Shown here in pieces: positions 1 to 9,587 of a stretch of 9,587 nt of DNA. The notes beneath the pieces were generated by a model. The model was not told the DNA's origin. It did no database searches and saw only the letters and a list, made by a program, of their open reading frames with translations. The stretch's first letter is position 1. Each line of letters opens with the position of its first letter. The DNA is from Candidatus Nanopusillus sp. (GTDB lineage Archaea > Nanobdellota > Nanobdellia > Nanobdellales > Nanobdellaceae). The stretch lies in assembly GCA_028275775.1 (NCBI GenBank), contig JAPWTZ010000016.1, positions 1 through 9,587 on the forward strand. Direction: 5' to 3'. A program made the position numbers and the translations under genes.

Positions 1-510
1 TGTTAAATTTAATAATTGACCATTTGATGATACTACTCCTACTGCTGGCATGTAGTTTGAACCTGATCCAAAGTTATTAAATGTTATTTGATCTGATGCT
101 GGTTGTACATATGCTTCATATGTATAACTTTGTCCATTTATTTGGAATGATCCTGATCCTACTTGTAATACTGGATATACACTATTTATATTACTACCTA
201 AGTAAAGAGGTGCTTGTGATGAGTAAAGTGGATATACACCAGATGGAACTTGAGATACACTTGTTGAACTTACATTAACTGTTACATTTTGAGTTGATGG
301 TACTGTAAATGTTTCCAAAGCTGCAATTATGTTTGAGGCCCCTACAACATCTGCTGCATTGGCATTTGCTCCTACTACTACTGTCCATGATGTTGGTTGT
401 GATTTCATAGACTGTGCTAATTGACCTATTGTTGGTGCTCCTTGAGAATATGCTGCTACTCCCAATATTCCTAATGCTCCCAAAACTGCTAAGGTCTTAC
501 CTCTCATCAT
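1..510 (-). CDS. S-layer / surface glycoprotein precursor, N-terminal 170 codons (3' end lies beyond the left window edge)
   Basis: Missing from the ORF track because there is no stop codon inside the window. My reverse-complement translation from ATG 510..508 stays open for all 170 codons down to position 1: MMRGKTLAVLGALGILGVAAYSQGAPTIGQLAQSMKSQPTSWTVVVGANANAADVVGASNIIAALETFTVPSTQNVTVNVSSTSVSQVPSG...NGQLLNLT. It has a textbook Sec signal peptide (MMRGK, then a hydrophobic core, then YSQG/AP). The VVVGxxAxAADVVGAxxIxAAL motif is the one I know from archaeal S_layer_N domains (Methanococcales/Thermococcales-type S-layer proteins). Composition is rich in S/T/G/V/A, and there are three N-x-S/T sequons (NVT, NVS, NLT). 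An in-frame ATG at 552..550 would add 14 codons (MEKGYKGKNPYRYF), and a stop lies two codons upstream of that. Confidence 0.7.
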   Translation of the reverse strand, partial: MMRGKTLAVLGALGILGVAAYSQGAPTIGQLAQSMKSQPTSWTVVVGANANAADVVGASNIIAALETFTVPSTQNVTVNVSSTSVSQVPSGVYPLYSSQAPLYLGSNINSVYPVLQVGSGSFQINGQSYTYEAYVQPASDQITFNNFGSGSNYMPAVGVVSSNGQLLNLT

Positions 511-572
511 AAAATATCTATATGGATTTTTTCCCTTATATCCTTTTTCCATGATTTATTTAATTATGATAG

Positions 573-661: not shown

Positions 662-1342
662 TTATAATTCTTTAGCCTTCAATAGTGCTACCAATGTTAC
701 TGTTGGTACCACAAATATAGTTAGTAAAATGAAAAATATTGCCATTCCATAATTTATTGAAATTGTTAACGCATATATTACATATATAATAGCCAATATT
801 ACTGATGCAATTATCGTGTATAATAGTATATATGCAAATAATATCAACGATTTTTCAAAATATATTGATAATTTATTTACTTTTCCTAAAATAGATCCAT
901 AGAATGTATATAGAAGTAGTATACTCAATATTATTGATATTATAATAATTGCCCATCCAATAATTATTAATGTTGGATTATATGATACATATTGATAACC
1001 TGTTAATCCAAATAGATTCATATATCCAGCTGATGCTAAAGATCCAACTGATACTGAAGTAATACCATTTAAAATAAATATTATTCCTATAGATGCTAAT
1101 AGATTTGGTATTAATAATGATAAAAATGATGTTTTATAATCTGGATTAATATTTTCTCCTGTAACTTTTGAATAATACCAGGATACTACACTTGGATAGA
1201 AATATGAATATATTATTACCCCCAATATTGGTAATGCTATAGATAAGAACCCCAGCACTGCTGCTGAAATAACAAATAATATACTATCTGCAAAATTTTT
1301 TCTCATATACTCAAAAGCCTTTTTATATATGTCTACTACCAT
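662..1342 (-). CDS. Uncharacterised polytopic membrane protein, paralog A (226 aa, about 5 TM segments)
   Basis: A 226-codon ORF in DNA where stop codons should occur roughly every 11 codons by chance. It has long hydrophobic segments. It shares these motifs with the adjacent gene: LPIxGxIIxSYxYP, WYYSKVTGENINPD(Y/H)KTSFLSLLIPNLL, YGSILGKVNKLSI and C-terminal LLKAKEL. A TATA-like TTTTTATATC lies about 24 nt upstream of the ATG. I recognise no enzymatic motif. The resemblance to DUF975/DUF4013-type small membrane proteins is only vague. Confidence 0.8.
   Translation of the reverse strand: MVVDIYKKAFEYMRKNFADSILFVISAAVLGFLSIALPILGVIIYSYFYPSVVSWYYSKVTGENINPDYKTSFLSLLIPNLLASIGIIFILNGITSVSVGSLASAGYMNLFGLTGYQYVSYNPTLIIIGWAIIIISIILSILLLYTFYGSILGKVNKLSIYFEKSLILFAYILLYTIIASVILAIIYVIYALTISINYGMAIFFILLTIFVVPTVTLVALLKAKEL
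863..901 (-). repeat. Identity block 1, copy A (39 nt, 100% identical to 1556-1594)
   Basis: Direct read: tattgataatttatttacttttcctaaaatagatccata occurs at both 863-901 and 1556-1594, an offset of 693. It encodes YGSILGKVNKLSI in both paralogs with no synonymous differences. Confidence 0.9.
1101..1180 (-). repeat. Identity block 2, copy A (80 nt, 79/80 identical to 1821-1900)
   Basis: Direct read: agatttggtattaataatgataaaaatgatgttttat[a/g]atctggattaatattttctcctgtaacttttgaataatacca occurs at 1101-1180 and 1821-1900, an offset of 720. The single mismatch (1138 against 1858) is nonsynonymous (Tyr/His). It encodes WYYSKVTGENINPD(Y/H)KTSFLSLLIPNL. Confidence 0.9.
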
Positions 1343-1372
1343 AAATAATAGATTTTAAAAAGATATAAAAAA

Positions 1373-2065
1373 TTACAATTCCTTAGCTTTTAGTAGTAAT
1401 ATTAGATTTAATGCTGGATATACAATCATTATATTTAAAATTATTACAATTATACTTCCCAATAAAGGTATTTTACCAATTATTAATAATATTATATCAG
1501 CAATAATATAAAATAAAAGCCAGTATGCAAATAATGTTAAGGACTTCTCAGCATCTATTGATAATTTATTTACTTTTCCTAAAATAGATCCATAAATACT
1601 ATATAATAATAATAACCACATTATTCCACTAACTATTATTATAATTATACCAATAACTATTCCTAAAAGAACATATGGAAGAAGATGGAAATTAGATAAA
1701 CTCATTAATATTAATTGTTGTAGATTATTGATATTCAATATATTTGTAAAAGTTAATCCTAGCTGTACTAAAATACTAACTAATACTACTAATATTATGG
1801 TTATACCAATAGAAAATAATAGATTTGGTATTAATAATGATAAAAATGATGTTTTATGATCTGGATTAATATTTTCTCCTGTAACTTTTGAATAATACCA
1901 TTTAGTTAATCTTGGATAAAGATATGAAAATATAATTGCTCCTATTATTGGTAATAAAAATAATAGACCCTGTAATATATAAAATAATATACCATATATT
2001 ATACTCTCTATTATATGATCCTTTACTAAATCAATAGATTTTTTATATGTTTCTAAAAGACCCAT
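1373..2065 (-). CDS. Uncharacterised polytopic membrane protein, paralog B (230 aa)
   Basis: A 230-codon ORF in tandem with, and on the same strand as, paralog A, separated by a 30-nt spacer. It has the same conserved motif set and the same C-terminal LLKAKEL. The central roughly 50 residues cannot be aligned with paralog A. It has its own TATA-like TTTTAAAT about 24 nt upstream of the ATG. Confidence 0.8.
   Translation of the reverse strand: MGLLETYKKSIDLVKDHIIESIIYGILFYILQGLLFLLPIIGAIIFSYLYPRLTKWYYSKVTGENINPDHKTSFLSLLIPNLLFSIGITIILVVLVSILVQLGLTFTNILNINNLQQLILMSLSNFHLLPYVLLGIVIGIIIIIVSGIMWLLLLYSIYGSILGKVNKLSIDAEKSLTLFAYWLLFYIIADIILLIIGKIPLLGSIIVIILNIMIVYPALNLILLLKAKEL
1556..1594 (-). repeat. 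Identity block 1, copy B
   Basis: See 863-901. Identical 39-mer. Confidence 0.9.
1821..1900 (-). repeat. Identity block 2, copy B
   Basis: See 1101-1180. 79/80 identical. Confidence 0.9.
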
Positions 2066-2095
2066 AAGAATTTTTCTTAATAAAAATTTAAAATA

Positions 2096-3619
2096 TTATC
2101 TTTTTGCAAACTTTATACCCTTCTTTTCATATTCAATAATATCGATTAACATTTCATCCTCATTTTTATATTCTTTCTTTAATAAAAATCTTGCAGATAA
2201 ATAACTTATACCCTTACCAGCATAAATAAATACAAATTTTTTACCATAATTTCTTAATAATTCAGCAGTTATATTTAATTTTTTCTCATCTTCCAAATCT
2301 TTTTCACTTTTTGCAACACCAAAATATTGACCTCCACATTTTTTACATTTAAATTTTTCATTATAATCCTTTACTTTTATTTTATATTTTGTTCCACATG
2401 CCATACAAACGAATATTAATTCTGTATTTTCAATTCTTTCCTTTACCAACTTTAATACTTCTCTCCATTTATCAGAAATCAATACATCTGATACATATTC
2501 TTCCAATCCTAAAATTGCTAAGGGAGATATATTTTCTCTATCAATAATATTTACCTTTATTTTTCTTTCCTTTATTTTCTTTAATATCATCTTTAAATTT
2601 TTTAAATCCAATTTTTCAATAAATAATTCATTTAATGTTTCTTTATATACTGGTGTATTTATTAAATGATCTAAAATTCTTCTTAAAGTAGATTTTGAAT
2701 AATCTGCATCCTTTCTAATTACTCCAAATCTTTTTGCAACATGAGAAAATTTCCATAAAAACAGATCTGTATTAACTATTGCCTTTTCCAATATATTTTC
2801 AACATTATCTAAATCAATATTTTCAATTACTTCCTTAATATTTTCCTTTGTAATATATCCAGCCTTTAACATTATTCTATATGGATCTGTTTTTATCCCA
2901 ACAACAATTCCATATTTTTCGGATAATATTTCAGAAATTAATCTTGATAATGCATCATTTATTTTAGTTCCAAATGGAGAATGAATAATAAACCAGTCCC
3001 TATATTGTTCAATATAAATATTATCTTTATTTGGATAAAAATATAATTCTTGATTTTTTAATTCATCAAAATTTAATAAATCTCTTTTTATTTCTTGTGC
3101 TTCCTGTGCAACCTCCAATGGAACAGGTAATAATTCACCTTCCCAGGAAGGTATTGCAGATTCGAAATCTTTTTCTAATCCAACCAAAATTTTGTTTTTT
3201 TCAACTTTTTCAATCTTCCATGGTAAACCCCTTAATATAAATATTGTACCAGGATTTCCATGTTTTGCAACAAATTCTTCATGTAATATACCAATTTTTT
3301 GACCAGTTGTTATATCATATACATCATATGATTTTTCATCAGGTATCATTGAAATATTATCTAAAAAATAAAATAATCCTTTTCTTGTCTTAATTAATTT
3401 TTTATTTTCTTTATCATATATTAAAATCTTTATTGAATCTAAGAAATTTATTATTTCTAAAAATTCTTCATATGTTAAATCTTTATATATATAAGATCTT
3501 TTTATTGTATTCCAAACAATATCAATATTAACTTCTCCATATTCCAAAGTCATCCCTACAATTTGATTTGCTAATACATCTAAAGCATTATAATGTATTT
3601 CAGGTTTTTCAAGTTTCAT
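2096..3619 (-). CDS. Lhr-type (COG1201) helicase, stand-alone C-terminal half: winged helix, DEAD_assoc/domain 4, Cys4 zinc ribbon and C-terminal tail. No RecA helicase core.
   Basis: The ORF track starts at a TTG (3640). I prefer the ATG at 3619 (MKLEKPEIHYNALDVLANQIVGM...), which has a TATA-like TTTATATA (3652..3645) about 29 nt upstream. Family motifs recognised by eye: ALDVLANQIVGM (compare PLDVLAQQIV at the start of the Lhr winged-helix domain), IPDEKSYDVYDITTGQKIGILHEEFV...GTIFILRGLPWKIEKVEKNKILV, AIPSWEGELLPVP, and a zinc ribbon CMAC-x16-CKKC (nt 2336-2407). Walker A, DEAH and motif VI are absent anywhere in the ORF. Confidence 0.8.
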   Translation of the reverse strand: MKLEKPEIHYNALDVLANQIVGMTLEYGEVNIDIVWNTIKRSYIYKDLTYEEFLEIINFLDSIKILIYDKENKKLIKTRKGLFYFLDNISMIPDEKSYDVYDITTGQKIGILHEEFVAKHGNPGTIFILRGLPWKIEKVEKNKILVGLEKDFESAIPSWEGELLPVPLEVAQEAQEIKRDLLNFDELKNQELYFYPNKDNIYIEQYRDWFIIHSPFGTKINDALSRLISEILSEKYGIVVGIKTDPYRIMLKAGYITKENIKEVIENIDLDNVENILEKAIVNTDLFLWKFSHVAKRFGVIRKDADYSKSTLRRILDHLINTPVYKETLNELFIEKLDLKNLKMILKKIKERKIKVNIIDRENISPLAILGLEEYVSDVLISDKWREVLKLVKERIENTELIFVCMACGTKYKIKVKDYNEKFKCKKCGGQYFGVAKSEKDLEDEKKLNITAELLRNYGKKFVFIYAGKGISYLSARFLLKKEYKNEDEMLIDIIEYEKKGIKFAKR

Positions 3620-3640
3620 GATTATTATATTTATAACCAA

Positions 3641-3711: not shown

Positions 3712-4167
3712 ATGATAACAACATCAGAGGGATTAGATGAAATAATGAGATGCATAGATAAAAACATTGGAAGAGTTTCTTTATATACAATTAAACAATT
3801 ATTAGCTAGTAAAGGAGTATATGATTATACAGATGGAACATCTACCATTAATTATAAAAATAGAGATACGATAGAATATAAAAAGTACATAATAGGTATG
3901 AGCATTGTTGATTTTCTTTATGTAGAAGGTGGATGCAATTTACCAATACAGACTACATATTCACTTAATAAAAATGTATATATAGAAATTGCAAATAAAG
4001 TTTTAAAAAGATTAGAAGACAATAGCATAATAAAAATAAGAGAAAATTATATCATAATAATAAAAGATTCTTTTAATATCGCAAAAGAACTTGAAAGAAA
4101 ACATGGGATACCATGGAAAGATGCTTACGATATTATTGAAGGAATAAAAAGAAAAAGGAATTATTAA
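3712..4167 (+). CDS. Hypothetical protein, 151 aa (soluble, lysine-rich; possibly winged-helix-like)
   Basis: A 151-codon ORF in stop-rich DNA with a plausible TATA at about -25. I recognise no family. The segments GRVSLYTIKQLLASKG and IANKVLKRLEDNSIIKIRENYIII look like HTH/wing elements, but this is only a guess. Confidence 0.6.
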   Translation: MITTSEGLDEIMRCIDKNIGRVSLYTIKQLLASKGVYDYTDGTSTINYKNRDTIEYKKYIIGMSIVDFLYVEGGCNLPIQTTYSLNKNVYIEIANKVLKRLEDNSIIKIRENYIIIIKDSFNIAKELERKHGIPWKDAYDIIEGIKRKRNY

Positions 4168-7081: not shown

Positions 7082-8413
7082 ATGAAAAATTCTCTCATGA
7101 ATAAATATGATTATATTTATATATTTCTTATATCATTTATACCACAATTAATTATTTTATTATTATCTCCTCCAATATTGTTTTGGGATGAATATTCATA
7201 TTTAGATAATGTAAAACATATATTATTAAATACCCCATATTTTGAATATTATAGATTTCCATTATTATGGTGGATATTAATTCCAATTTCTTATATTACA
7301 AATTTCAATATATTTTTTATAAAATTATTTTTAATTTTCATTTTTTCTTTATCAACAGTATTTTTATATAAAATATTGGAAGAATATGATAATAAATATA
7401 TAAACTATATTTTGATTTTATTTTATTCATTAAATGGATTATTTTTAATTTGGGCATCAAGAATTTATCCAGATGTTTTAGCATCTTCTTTATTAATTTT
7501 TTCAATATATTTCTATATAAAATACTTTAAAGATAATAAAGAAAGAAATTTAATTTTATATTCATTATTTTCAGTTCTATCAATTCTTTCAAAATATGAA
7601 TATGGTTTATGGTTAATTTCTTCAATAATTTTTTTAAAAAATAAGGATAAATTAAAAACAATATTATATTCTTTTCTATTTTCAATCCCATATTTTTTAT
7701 ATAACTTAATATTATATCATAATCCAATATTTATATTTATTAAACAGGCTGAAGTTGTCTATGCATATACATCTTATCAACCTCTTTCAATATTTTTATT
7801 CAATTTATTTATATTTTCTTCTGCATATCTTTTTTCTTTATTACAAAACCCAAAGAAAATTGAAAACTATAATAAATCTATATATTTATATATAATATTA
7901 TCAATAATATTTCTTGCATTTTTTGTTAAAGCGAAAGATGCAAGATATATTTTAATGATATTACCCCCATTTTTAATATTAACAAGGATATTTATTAATA
8001 AAATAAAAGGTTTACAATTTCCATATTTATTTTTATTTTCATTATTAAATATTATGTCAATATATTATGGTATAGCATTTTTAATAAATTATAATACAAA
8101 TCTTGGAAATACATATTTAAATTATGTATATAGAGCTTCAGAATACTTAAAACAATATAATCCAAAAGTAATATTAACAAATGTTAATTGGCCAATGGTT
8201 GCATATTATACAAATTCTCAGGTTTATATAATGTATAATGCTACATATTTAATCCCAAGAGTTTATCCCCAATTTATTATATATTCTCCAAATTGTGGAA
8301 CACCTTTTCCATTTAATCCAAATGATTATAATATATCATTAATATATTATTATATAGATCCAAATGATTGCCAAATATATATTTATAAAGTAAATAGTTA
8401 TTTTGTTAAATAA
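7082..8413 (+). CDS. GT-C fold membrane glycosyltransferase (PMT_2 / ArnT-like family), 443 aa
   Basis: About 10 or more hydrophobic segments. It has an acidic first-loop motif FWDEYSYLDN after TM1, then YYRFPLLWW and RIYPDVLASS, in the order seen in ArnT/PMT_2-type lipid-linked-sugar transferases. A C-terminal non-membrane domain carries N-x-S/T sequons. There is no WWDYG motif, so it is not an AglB/STT3 oligosaccharyltransferase. Confidence 0.55.
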   Translation: MKNSLMNKYDYIYIFLISFIPQLIILLLSPPILFWDEYSYLDNVKHILLNTPYFEYYRFPLLWWILIPISYITNFNIFFIKLFLIFIFSLSTVFLYKILEEYDNKYINYILILFYSLNGLFLIWASRIYPDVLASSLLIFSIYFYIKYFKDNKERNLILYSLFSVLSILSKYEYGLWLISSIIFLKNKDKLKTILYSFLFSIPYFLYNLILYHNPIFIFIKQAEVVYAYTSYQPLSIFLFNLFIFSSAYLFSLLQNPKKIENYNKSIYLYIILSIIFLAFFVKAKDARYILMILPPFLILTRIFINKIKGLQFPYLFLFSLLNIMSIYYGIAFLINYNTNLGNTYLNYVYRASEYLKQYNPKVILTNVNWPMVAYYTNSQVYIMYNATYLIPRVYPQFIIYSPNCGTPFPFNPNDYNISLIYYYIDPNDCQIYIYKVNSYFVK

Positions 8414-9057
8414 CCTTCCAATTCATTCAAACTTGCAAATCCTCTAATAGTATATGTTTCATTATATTTATATATAATAATAAATGGCCAGGTAGTAATA
8501 TTATACTTTAAATTATAATAACTTATAAAGTAATTTGGATAACTTGAATCAAAAGAATATATATACAAATTATGCTGATTTTGTACATATAAATATGTTA
8601 AAATATCACCTTCCTGATTACATGCACTTCCACAATATTTATTATTATAGAAATATAATATCAATGTGAAATTTGTTATATTGCAATCTTCTATATATTT
8701 TCTAGTTAATAAAAAGTGTAAATATTCCATATTAAAATATTGAGATTTTAAATATTTTACTTCTTCTTTATTATAATATATATTTTCCTTCGATTCTAAA
8801 TATGTCAATTCCTGCCCAATCTGAGCAATTTGAGATTTCAAATATTCTAAAAAAGATAAATAATTATTACTACACTCTAAACTTTGAGAACTTGCTAAAT
8901 ATTGGGCTGAAATTACCAATGAATTTATTTCATCAATTTGTAATATACTCTGTTGAAATGAATACTGATATAATAAATAACCTAAAATTATTCCTAAGAA
9001 AAAGGATAATATAGATATTATTACTGCTACTATTATTATGTTTCTTGGTTTATCCAT
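8398..9057 (-). CDS. Membrane-anchored (N-terminal TM) extracytoplasmic thioredoxin-fold protein with a C-G-S-A-C (CxxxC) motif, 219 aa
   Basis: A single N-terminal TM (IIIVAVIISILSFFLGIILGYLLY), then a helical/coiled linker, then a C-terminal roughly 95 aa that aligns by eye almost without gaps to E. coli TrxA: LILYFYNNKYCGSACN against ILVDFWAEWCGPCK, NITTWPFIIIY against IRGIPTLLLF (cis-Pro), and RGFASLNELEGYL against VGALSKGQLKEFL. The Cys pair is at nt 8620-8634. Three sequons (NIT, NIT, NET) fit an outside location. Confidence 0.55.
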   Translation of the reverse strand: MDKPRNIIIVAVIISILSFFLGIILGYLLYQYSFQQSILQIDEINSLVISAQYLASSQSLECSNNYLSFLEYLKSQIAQIGQELTYLESKENIYYNKEEVKYLKSQYFNMEYLHFLLTRKYIEDCNITNFTLILYFYNNKYCGSACNQEGDILTYLYVQNQHNLYIYSFDSSYPNYFISYYNLKYNITTWPFIIIYKYNETYTIRGFASLNELEGYLTK

Positions 9058-9587
9058 ATTTTTTATTTAAAAGTTTATTTATTAAACTATTATTCCATAC
9101 AATCCCACCCCATCTTAGATTCTTACCAAACAATTTATAATATACTGCTACAATTATAAAAATTGCATTAAAATATATTGAAAAAATTAGGTATATAATT
9201 GAATAATAAATTATTGATAACCATGATTTTGATTTATCATATCTTCTATATATACTAATAAAAAGAAAGAAATCTATTAACAAGATAATTGAAAATATCA
9301 TTAAAATCAATTGGGATGTAGATAATAATTGAAAGATATATGTATTAATATTAAAAGAAAAATAATTTTTGATGAAATAGGATATATCATAATTTATAGA
9401 AGATAGATATATTAAAAAATTATATAATTGATATCCATATGTATATAATATTACTGAAAATGCTAATGGTATTAAAATATATAAAATTATATTAATACCA
9501 AAAACAACTTCTCTTAAATATTCATTTTCAATATCTCTATATTTCATATAATTTTCAATAAATCCCAATGTCCATCTTACTCTTTGT
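9050..9587 (-). CDS. Cys-free polytopic membrane protein, probably 5'-truncated by the window edge
   Basis: The ORF track starts it at a TTG (9568), but the frame stays open to the last base of the window (...QRVRWT-LGFIENYMKYRD...). I see no convincing TATA upstream of the internal ATG at 9547. The gene therefore probably begins beyond 9587. It has four to five hydrophobic segments. Its stop overlaps the start of the downstream thioredoxin-fold gene (ATGGATAA, 9057..9050), which indicates co-transcription and translational coupling. Confidence 0.6.
   Translation of the reverse strand, partial: QRVRWTLGFIENYMKYRDIENEYLREVVFGINIILYILIPLAFSVILYTYGYQLYNFLIYLSSINYDISYFIKNYFSFNINTYIFQLLSTSQLILMIFSIILLIDFFLFISIYRRYDKSKSWLSIIYYSIIYLIFSIYFNAIFIIVAVYYKLFGKNLRWGGIVWNNSLINKLLNKKYG

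Follow-up and report, generated by a model that had tools for sequence, protein, structure and literature searches.

Segmental gene conversion and concerted evolution between duplicated paralogues are known from bacterial tufA/tufB and from many duplicated surface-protein genes. SlaB, the membrane anchor of the surface layer (S-layer) of Sulfolobales, is encoded beside slaA and is a single-pass protein with a long extracellular stalk. AliA and AliB (arCOG02177/02178) are paralogous archaeal membrane proteins that are needed for lipoprotein lipidation (PMC12462473). Each of these systems has features in common with a tandem pair of membrane-protein genes, here called copy B and copy A, that lies beside an S-layer gene on a 9,587-nucleotide (nt) stretch of DNA from Candidatus Nanopusillus sp. 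(positions 1 to 9,587 of contig JAPWTZ010000016.1, assembly GCA_028275775.1; hereafter the window), the GC content of which is 22%. A and B are anciently duplicated members, both retained, of a small orphan family of polytopic proteins with five transmembrane (TM) helices in the terrestrial Nanoarchaeota. In each genome, two blocks of their coding sequence stay identical at the DNA level through recurrent gene conversion of short tracts between the tandem copies.

The preliminary description of the window had proposed two adjacent genes on the same strand, encoding proteins of 226 and 230 amino acids (aa). Both open reading frames (ORFs) are real, with the correction that they lie on the minus strand. 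Copy B (2065..1373, minus strand; 230 aa) is the B-type paralogue and the orthologue of N. acidilobi Nps_00750 and of Nst1_171, and copy A (1342..662, minus strand; 226 aa) is the A-type paralogue and the orthologue of N. acidilobi Nps_00755 and of Nst1_170. The two proteins are 49% identical (BLASTP, E = 3e-46), and their genes are ~66% identical overall at the DNA level. The same B-then-A tandem, with a spacer of 29-34 nt, was found at the 26 loci that hold both complete genes, and both copies are retained in 26/26 of these.

A word-indexed homologue search found 148 relatives of A and B, whose named hosts are all Nanopusillus or Nanobsidianus and which split cleanly into A-type (~54) and B-type (56, at 64-99% identity) orthologous groups. 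An exhaustive search of 1.84 billion cluster representatives with a hidden Markov model (HMM) returned only 34 family members at E <= 1e-3. Those with names belong without exception to Nanopusillaceae, Nanoclepta, Nanobdella or unclassified Nanoarchaeota, and the named clusters include no protein of Nanoarchaeum equitans. When a broad family profile was used in a word-indexed search, the 120 matches listed contained only family members. The genera represented are Nanopusillus, Nanobsidianus, Nanoclepta and Nanobdella, together with strain YN1. Neither A nor B matches a Pfam or NCBIfam model, and scans of ~50 relatives gave nothing above threshold, in agreement with the preliminary description, which had recognized no characterized family. 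Comparison of AlphaFold2 (AF2) models of A and B with the PDB using Foldseek gave no significant fold match, and a profile search of PDB sequences returned nothing meaningful for the family.

In published annotation the pair appears only as uncharacterized membrane proteins: Nps_00750 and Nps_00755 both carry the entry 'uncharacterized membrane protein', have 5 and 6 TM helices, respectively, and lack an arCOG (PMC4935971, Supplementary Data 1). The literature searched contained neither a definition of the family, nor its restricted distribution, nor its segmental concerted evolution, and no paper in it linked gene conversion in Nanoarchaeota to these genes. The supplementary tables of Jarett et al. 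2018 (PMC6142677) hold nothing on A or B, and the term 'DUF4013', which bears on a possible affiliation considered below, led to one unrelated paper. The names given by the Joint Genome Institute to P0001, P0075 and P0077 (P and L numbers are our own for proteins and loci), 'cytochrome b561' for copy B and 'MFS family permease' for some A-type orthologues, have no Pfam or NCBIfam support and were rejected. A further run of consecutive 5-TM 'uncharacterized membrane proteins' is present in N. acidilobi (Nps_03160, Nps_03165 and Nps_03170) near the 'S-layer domain' gene Nps_03135 (PMC4935971), and may form a second array belonging to this family or to one like it.

Both A and B contain the motifs SKVTGENINPDxK, GKVNKLS and KAKEL, and the two copies share two tracts of near-identical DNA. 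Block 1 comprises loop 1 together with the cytoplasmic end of TM1 before it and the first part of TM2 after it. In B it is WYYSKVTGENINPDHKTSFLSLLIPNLL (1817..1900, minus strand), which matches the A tract, WYYSKVTGENINPDYKTSFLSLLIPNLL (1097..1180, minus strand), at 83/84 nt (repeat family D1, spacing 720 nt). Block 2 covers the cytoplasmic end of TM3 and loop 3, and the sequence YGSILGKVNKLSI is the same at 39/39 nt in B (1556..1594, minus strand) and in A (863..901, minus strand; repeat family D2, spacing 693 nt). The runs of identity between A and B reach 42, 41 and 39 nt, whereas alignments with shuffled columns gave a mean longest run of 13.9 nt and a maximum of 33 nt. The blocks are the only substantial direct repeats in the window. 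Scans of the window with Rfam models and for tRNA genes found nothing, and thus no known RNA element accounts for the conserved DNA.

To place these tracts in an evolutionary setting, distances were compared across the 26 genomes that carry both A and B. In block 1 (84 nt) the nucleotide distance between A and B of one genome (0.038) is smaller than the distance between A orthologues (0.072) or B orthologues (0.089) of different genomes (permutation p <= 0.0005), whereas outside the blocks A and B are separated by 0.38-0.49 and orthologues by 0.13-0.23. The corresponding signal for block 2 is marginal (A-B 0.069 versus 0.059 and 0.068 for orthologues). Variants that are private to one genome, synonymous ones included, are common to both copies. 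Paralogues differ at synonymous sites in a proportion (pS) of 0.106 for block 1 and 0.174 for block 2, compared with 0.48-0.70 elsewhere; between orthologues pS is 0.15-0.19 inside the blocks, little lower than outside. At sites where A and B have the same amino acid they also use the same codon in 94% of cases in block 1 and 88% in block 2, but in 60% in the rest of the gene. The window alone gives 26/26, 13/13 and 39/74 for the three regions (P = 6e-8 and 2e-4 for blocks 1 and 2).

Shared motifs might also arise with no gene conversion, from purifying selection combined with an extreme AT codon bias. A GC content of 22% does narrow the choice of codons, and the blocks are the most constrained segments of the proteins, with a ratio of non-synonymous to synonymous substitution (dN/dS; pooled Nei-Gojobori (NG86) counts among orthologues, in a genome of 22% GC) of 0.15-0.30. 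This explanation is nevertheless very improbable. It does not account for the drop in same-codon use elsewhere in the same two genes, for block 1 paralogues within a genome being closer than orthologues between genomes, or for private synonymous variants that appear in both copies. Moreover, the blocks of YN1 and Nanobdella differ in amino acid sequence from those described above, yet are the same in all copies of each genome. All three copies in YN1 share the lineage-specific block 1 peptide WYYQKLSGEKLNPNY.VSFIS, and copies c1 and c3 have ~90 identical nt in common; in Nanobdella a 133-nt tract with 3 mismatches lies inside genes that are otherwise roughly 50% identical. Because the blocks change in concert within a genome, purifying selection and AT-biased codons are insufficient to explain them and short-tract gene conversion is sufficient.

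Within-genome identity of the blocks is seen in three closed genomes (CP010514, AP031373 and AP019769) and is therefore unlikely to be an assembly artefact. Concerted evolution is frequent but not obligatory, since it is absent in L052, a metagenome-assembled genome (MAG) of Nanopusillaceae, and weak in Nanoclepta. Over longer times the motif does change, but it does so in all copies of one genome together. The preliminary description had called the motifs invariant. That holds for the Nanopusillus/Nanobsidianus clade alone; in YN1 and Nanobdella the sequence is another one, and much of the apparent invariance is owed to gene conversion.

This behaviour resembles concerted evolution of the tufA/tufB type in that identity within a genome exceeds identity between orthologues of different genomes, the tract is sharply bounded, synonymous sites are homogenized and the process has recurred independently in several lineages. 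It differs in that the tracts are very short (~84 nt and ~39 nt; 133 nt in Nanobdella), cover only the motifs of the cytoplasmic face in strongly diverged genes (49% aa identity), and bracket a paralogue-specific outward segment that is never homogenized (0 ABA or BAB mosaics in 117 sequences).

The last point comes from typing 117 full-length relatives by region. Among these, 54 are A throughout and 54 are B throughout; seven are BAA (a B N-terminus followed by A), one is BBA (B through block 2, then A) and one is ABB (an A N-terminus followed by B). The chimeric genes are represented by L035:102-773, L038:1161-1865 and L055:214-903 and by proteins P0056, P0057, P0059-P0061, P0063, P0065, P0066 and P0029. 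In L035 and L038 a single B/A chimera stands between the helicase gene Lhr-C and the S-layer gene. In L055 a B C-terminus is followed by an A/B chimera and an A N-terminus, with the contig ending exactly at block 1, and this locus looks like part of a three-gene array. The chimeras may be explained equally well by unequal crossover at the blocks, which turns two copies into one or three, or by the assembler joining copies at an internal repeat. As no ABA or BAB mosaic is present, the outer cassette is not swapped between copies. Cassette-type antigenic variation of the pilE/pilS kind was rejected for the same reason, and also because both copies are full-length with start codons and promoter-like spacers.

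A separate proposal is that the blocks serve as recombination anchors bracketing an outward-facing TM2-loop-TM3 cassette, such that homologous exchange, whether from copy to copy or from strain to strain, reshuffles outer loops and changes copy number from 2 to 1 or from 2 to 3. The BAA, BBA and ABB chimeras, the three-copy array of YN1, the scattered forms of the A loop described below and a mosaic of strain distances would be its possible footprints, but we consider it improbable. If it were true, it would provide minimal-genome symbionts with a simple means to vary an envelope protein. The strain mosaic was seen when the A and B genes of L003 were compared with those of L008, L015 and the window: L003 and L008 are separated by 0.02 in the C-terminal part of B, by 0.11 in its N-terminal part and by 0.15 in the C-terminal part of A. 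This suggests recombination between strains inside the locus.

Hydropathy analysis revealed five hydrophobic stretches in both A and B. In 31 diverse members of the family the mean number of lysine and arginine residues (K+R) per protein is 3.5 in loop 1, 3.3 in loop 3 and 1.3 in the C-terminus, compared with 0.45 in the central segment between TM2 and TM3 and 0.16 in the TM4-TM5 turn, or 8.1 against 0.6 for the two sets of regions. The positive-inside rule predicts a cytoplasmic location for loops 1 and 3 and for the C-terminus, and an outside one for the central segment and the TM4-TM5 turn. It is this bias that puts both motifs in the cytoplasm and the central segment outward, and the counts agree with the orientation first proposed for the lysine-rich loops. 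The N-terminal amphipathic helix, with 3.1 K+R and 2.8 D+E, would be outside if there are five TM helices; if TM1 instead forms a hairpin at the conserved P39/G42, giving six, the amphipathic helix would be inside. The AF2 model of A (pLDDT 87.5, pTM 0.81) breaks the helix at P39/G42 and that of B does not. The original 5-TM assignment holds for the number of hydrophobic stretches, and the helices may number five or six.

Family-wide conservation involves Pro, Gly, Tyr and Ser, and no His, Cys, Asp or Glu; S175 is the sole fully invariant residue, and P39, G42, P51, Y155 and G163 are near-invariant. The lack of conserved His, Cys, Asp or Glu argues against an enzyme. Inspection also led us to reject a P-loop reading of GSILGKV, in which the spacing is GxxxGKV and not GxxxxGK[ST].

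The central segments were found close to where the preliminary description had put them, and they are the least alignable part of the two proteins. The predicted outward loop of A (~residues 93-124; 971..1066, minus strand) is Ser/Val/Gly/Thr-rich and disordered, is flanked by short strands and has a pLDDT < 50 for residues 96-117; its first half, ITSVSVGSLASAGYMN, is polymorphic and indel-prone. The predicted outward segment of B (~residues 98-131; 1673..1774, minus strand) contains no K or R and is modelled, at a pLDDT of ~65, as a helical hairpin that extends TM2 and TM3 and has NINN at its tip. It is recognizably conserved across all 56 orthologues and carries NxS/T sequons. These sequons (NFT, NIS/NIT and NFS) recur at conserved positions of the hairpin, and could be N-glycosylation sites, but Asn is very common in this AT-rich genome, and the ratio of sequons to Asn is 0.24 in the central segment versus 0.18 in loop 1. 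The description of the two segments as completely different holds in that each is specific to its paralogue. Since each is conserved among its orthologues, most of all in B, the difference reflects divergence after an old duplication and not ongoing hypervariation.

Selective constraint varies along the genes. The blocks are the slowest-evolving parts and the only ones under strong constraint; dN/dS rises to 0.34-0.81 in the N-terminal, TM3 and C-terminal regions and is highest in the remainder of TM2 together with the central region (1.05 in A and 0.74 in B). The TM helices, at 0.5-0.8, also evolve fast. In the same loci, the S-layer gene has a dN/dS of 0.54-0.89 and Lhr-C one of 0.083. Outside both motifs, A and B evolve like surface proteins, with the central part the fastest.

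These values bear on the proposal that the pair is a module for host contact or recognition, with diversifying selection acting on its outward TM2-TM3 segment where symbiont and host meet. The segment is predicted to be outward, its dN/dS is the highest in the gene and near that of the S-layer gene, and the A outer loop is polymorphic and rich in indels among close relatives, as had been anticipated: its first half has 49 distinct variants in 59 sequences and three length forms. These forms are scattered, the mean distance outside the loop being 0.137 between sequences of the same form versus 0.148 between sequences of different forms. Jarett et al. 2018 (PMC6142677) report that non-synonymous single-nucleotide polymorphisms are denser in hypothetical surface proteins of Nanoarchaeota. 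However, dN/dS is not clearly > 1, and it comes from pooled Nei-Gojobori counts at a GC content of 22%; the loop of B shows fair conservation among genera-level orthologues, and fast evolution extends to the TM helices. Between the A-loop forms there are a few substitutions, and indels within a TCAGTATCAGTT-type repeat, so that slippage in this repeat can explain the length forms and slippage, recombination and selection are indistinguishable. The exposed part is only ~20-35 aa and would lie under the S-layer. A host-contact role is therefore rather unlikely. The contrast of a conserved inner face with a variable outer one stands as a pattern, but not as a case for diversifying selection.

The genes around the pair speak for an envelope setting. 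The order on the minus strand is Lhr-C (3640/3619..2096), B, A, a gap of 109 nt and the S-layer gene (552..1), and it is also found in N. acidilobi. The window holds the 5' part of the S-layer gene (1..552, minus strand; 184 codons), which encodes an N-terminal signal-like peptide and continues beyond the window edge. We call it an S-layer gene because its own ORF has weak matches only (Pfam S_layer_C, E = 2e-4; TIGR01564, E = 0.005), its full-length orthologues match S_layer_C clearly, and the N. acidilobi orthologue, Nps760, is described as a predicted S-layer protein (Wurch et al. 2016, PMC4935971). The GC content of this region (window 1-500) is 36%, versus 16-25% in the remaining window, which is probably due to the Gly/Ala/Ser/Thr/Val-rich composition of the protein.

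In YN1 three tandem family members stand between Lhr-C and the S-layer gene; Nanobdella aerobiophila has two with the S-layer gene adjacent, and L052 has two. In Nanoclepta the pair lies 5' of Lhr-C, and three genes (Lhr-C, GatD and a GatB/GatE-like gene) intervene before the S-layer gene. The adjacency that the preliminary description had stressed therefore exists in the window and is broken in Nanoclepta, whereas family members adjoin Lhr-C in every locus with readable flanking genes. The wider conserved block consists of Lactamase_B, GT2, a ~219-aa membrane ORF, PMT_2 and then Lhr-C.

Direct proximity to an S-layer gene is what likens A and B to SlaB, and the full-length S-layer orthologues (one of them in L035) have no C-terminal TM anchor, so a separate anchor would make sense. 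A and B differ from SlaB in having five TM helices and <= ~35 residues outside, with no similarity in sequence or fold. A SlaB-like anchor was rejected because the proteins are not single-pass and have no long stalk, and because the family, although next to the S-layer gene in Nanopusillus, YN1 and Nanobdella, is not so placed in Nanoclepta. The resemblance to AliA and AliB lies in the pairing of paralogous, formerly uncharacterized archaeal membrane proteins, of which AliA and AliB are non-redundant and act on cell-surface proteins. AliA and AliB have arCOGs and a conserved catalytic Arg or His, whereas no arCOG covers A or B, and neither Arg nor His nor Cys is conserved in them. On these grounds, and because the S-layer signal peptide lacks a lipobox Cys, identity with AliA/AliB was also rejected.

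Taken as a whole, the data are best explained by an orphan tandem family with conversion of the blocks and an envelope platform made of A and B, a combination that we regard as plausible, although somewhat short of probable. The platform itself is put forward tentatively. A and B would be non-redundant subunits of one hetero-oligomeric membrane assembly that acts as an envelope scaffold or adaptor, not as an enzyme or a classical solute carrier. Blocks 1 and 2 would form its cytoplasmic face, with every subunit offering the same docking surface to a common partner or to the other subunits, and the small outward loops would face the pseudo-periplasm beneath the S-layer. We infer such a platform from the co-retention of the copies, the lack of conserved residues of a catalytic type, the weakly constrained TM helices, the concerted cytoplasmic motif and the envelope neighbourhood.

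Several observations weigh against it. The pairs of L052 and Nanoclepta both have a diverged block 1, and conversion tracts can persist without selection for identity, since constrained sequence stays similar enough to recombine. The association of A with B would rest on their co-retention and not on direct evidence of interaction. The AF2 model of B has a pLDDT of 82, with 1/5 models confident. Proteomics of N. acidilobi did not detect Nps_00750 or Nps_00755 (PMC4935971), although these proteins should offer few tryptic sites. The outward parts, at ~20-35 aa, are too short to span an archaeal pseudo-periplasm. Finally, adjacency to the S-layer gene has been lost in Nanoclepta, and the neighbourhood is weak functional evidence in any case because small related genomes share synteny broadly.

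A small channel or transporter for a solute, a lipid or a lipid-linked glycan, in which the cytoplasmic motifs would form a gate or vestibule, is an unlikely alternative to the platform. Such a protein could possibly serve the nearby GT2 and PMT_2 glycosylation genes. The arrangement would be reminiscent of ArnE/ArnF, paired paralogous small membrane proteins beside the GT-C enzyme ArnT. A and B cross the membrane several times, Pro and Gly are conserved within TM1, TM2 and TM5, and the best structural likeness, a non-significant one, is to the choline-transporter-like protein PNS1 (query-normalized TM-score (TMq) 0.54, E = 0.87). Annotated transporters are also very few in Nanoarchaeota (Wurch et al. 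2016, PMC4935971). Against this, no charged or polar residue embedded in a TM helix is conserved family-wide, a dN/dS of 0.5-0.8 would be unusual for substrate-lining helices, and no transporter family gave a significant match in sequence or fold. A and B share the same K/R bias and so are not an antiparallel pair of the SMR kind. A relation to EI24/CysZ (PF07264) was rejected: two distant members score 14.8 and 10.9 bits against a cut-off of 32 bits, hhalign of the family profile with E. coli CysZ gave a probability of 0.3%, and CysZ was absent from the Foldseek matches listed.

The family could instead be a very divergent branch of a 'TM-IPxxG' superfamily comprising DUF4013, the GDPD membrane domain and DUF973, and represent a generic membrane-anchoring or organizing module; this would not exclude the platform. 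DUF4013 and GPDPase_memb proteins would resemble the family in size and general plan: an amphipathic helix at the N-terminus, then a long TM1 that bears a Pro/Gly motif, a charged loop and further TM helices. Two family members carry these names in UniRef: the A-type member P0097 ('DUF4013 domain-containing') and P0165 of Nanoclepta ('Glycerophosphoryl diester phosphodiesterase membrane domain-containing'). Sub-threshold Pfam matches were seen to DUF973 (PF06157; 3/30 members, best E = 0.0072, with the gathering score not reached), DUF624 (E = 0.016), DUF898 (E = 0.012) and EI24/CysZ (E = 0.03). These weak matches are scattered over unrelated families and cover TM1 only. The current Pfam HMMs for DUF4013 (PF13197; window proteins and ~50 members including P0097) and GPDPase_memb (PF10110; P0165, P0133 and the other members scanned) gave no match at E <= 10, including to the two proteins so named, and membership is not established. 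We consider this affiliation doubtful, and since the candidate families are themselves uncharacterized, it would add little.

The spacer 5' of B (2066..2095, minus strand) and the spacer between B and A (1343..1372, minus strand) are both exactly 30 nt long, and each contains a T/A-rich, TATA-like element ~22-30 nt ahead of the ATG, confirming the separate elements noted in the preliminary description. In the spacer of B the element is TTTTAAAT, conserved in all distinct upstream sequences of the 26 paired loci. The spacer between the genes holds the conserved TTTTTTATATCTTTTTA, and its sequence is conserved across the same loci over its range of 29-34 nt. These elements are candidate separate promoters for B and A, and their distance from the start codons would suit leaderless mRNAs.

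Lhr-C (2096..3640, minus strand) is the C-terminal half of an Lhr helicase encoded by a split gene, with Pfam matches to WH_Lhr, DEAD_assoc and a Zn-ribbon. Its true start is probably the ATG at 3619 and not the TTG at 3640, because the orthologues begin with MK(I/L)EKPEIHY. A second 'Lhr-like helicase' gene, Nps_00695, is present elsewhere in N. acidilobi (Wurch et al. 2016, PMC4935971). In some Nanopusillus contigs a third, distant family member lies 5' of Lhr-C (L017:491-1123 and L046:257-856). It encodes ~200-210 aa, is 32% identical to B and has almost no central segment; it is not found at the corresponding position in the window.

Adjoining Lhr-C in all genera examined is a group made up of GT2 (Glyco_transf_21-like), the ~219-aa membrane ORF, which overlaps the end of GT2, and a PMT_2-type GT-C gene on the opposite strand (window 7082-9568; L049:286-3597; L051:2057-5267; L052:1142-4414; L053:2168-5409). 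For the ORF that takes the PMT_2 position in Nanobdella (L053), no Pfam match is on record, and the ~219-aa protein (window 8398-9057) has no Pfam or NCBIfam match. TtuA-like and AFOR-like genes are inserted between this group and Lhr-C in the window. In the interval between Lhr-C and the AFOR-like gene, the opposite strand carries a 151-aa ORF with no family match (window 3712-4167, plus strand). N. acidilobi, with 55 nt between these two genes, lacks this ORF, which looks like a strain-specific insertion.

Terrestrial Nanoarchaeota live on host material through a contact only tens of nanometres across. Their conserved predicted membrane proteins have been suggested as a place to seek the mechanism (Wurch et al. 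2016, PMC4935971), and one such family is now defined: it is lineage-restricted and always multi-copy, and it has an envelope neighbourhood, a constrained cytoplasmic face and fast outer loops. The pair is also a clear case of segmental concerted evolution in an archaeal genome of 0.6 Mb, and a reminder that motif identity between paralogues should not pass for deep conservation. If A and B are an envelope platform or a component of the host interface, their cytoplasmic motif would offer a handle for a partner search.

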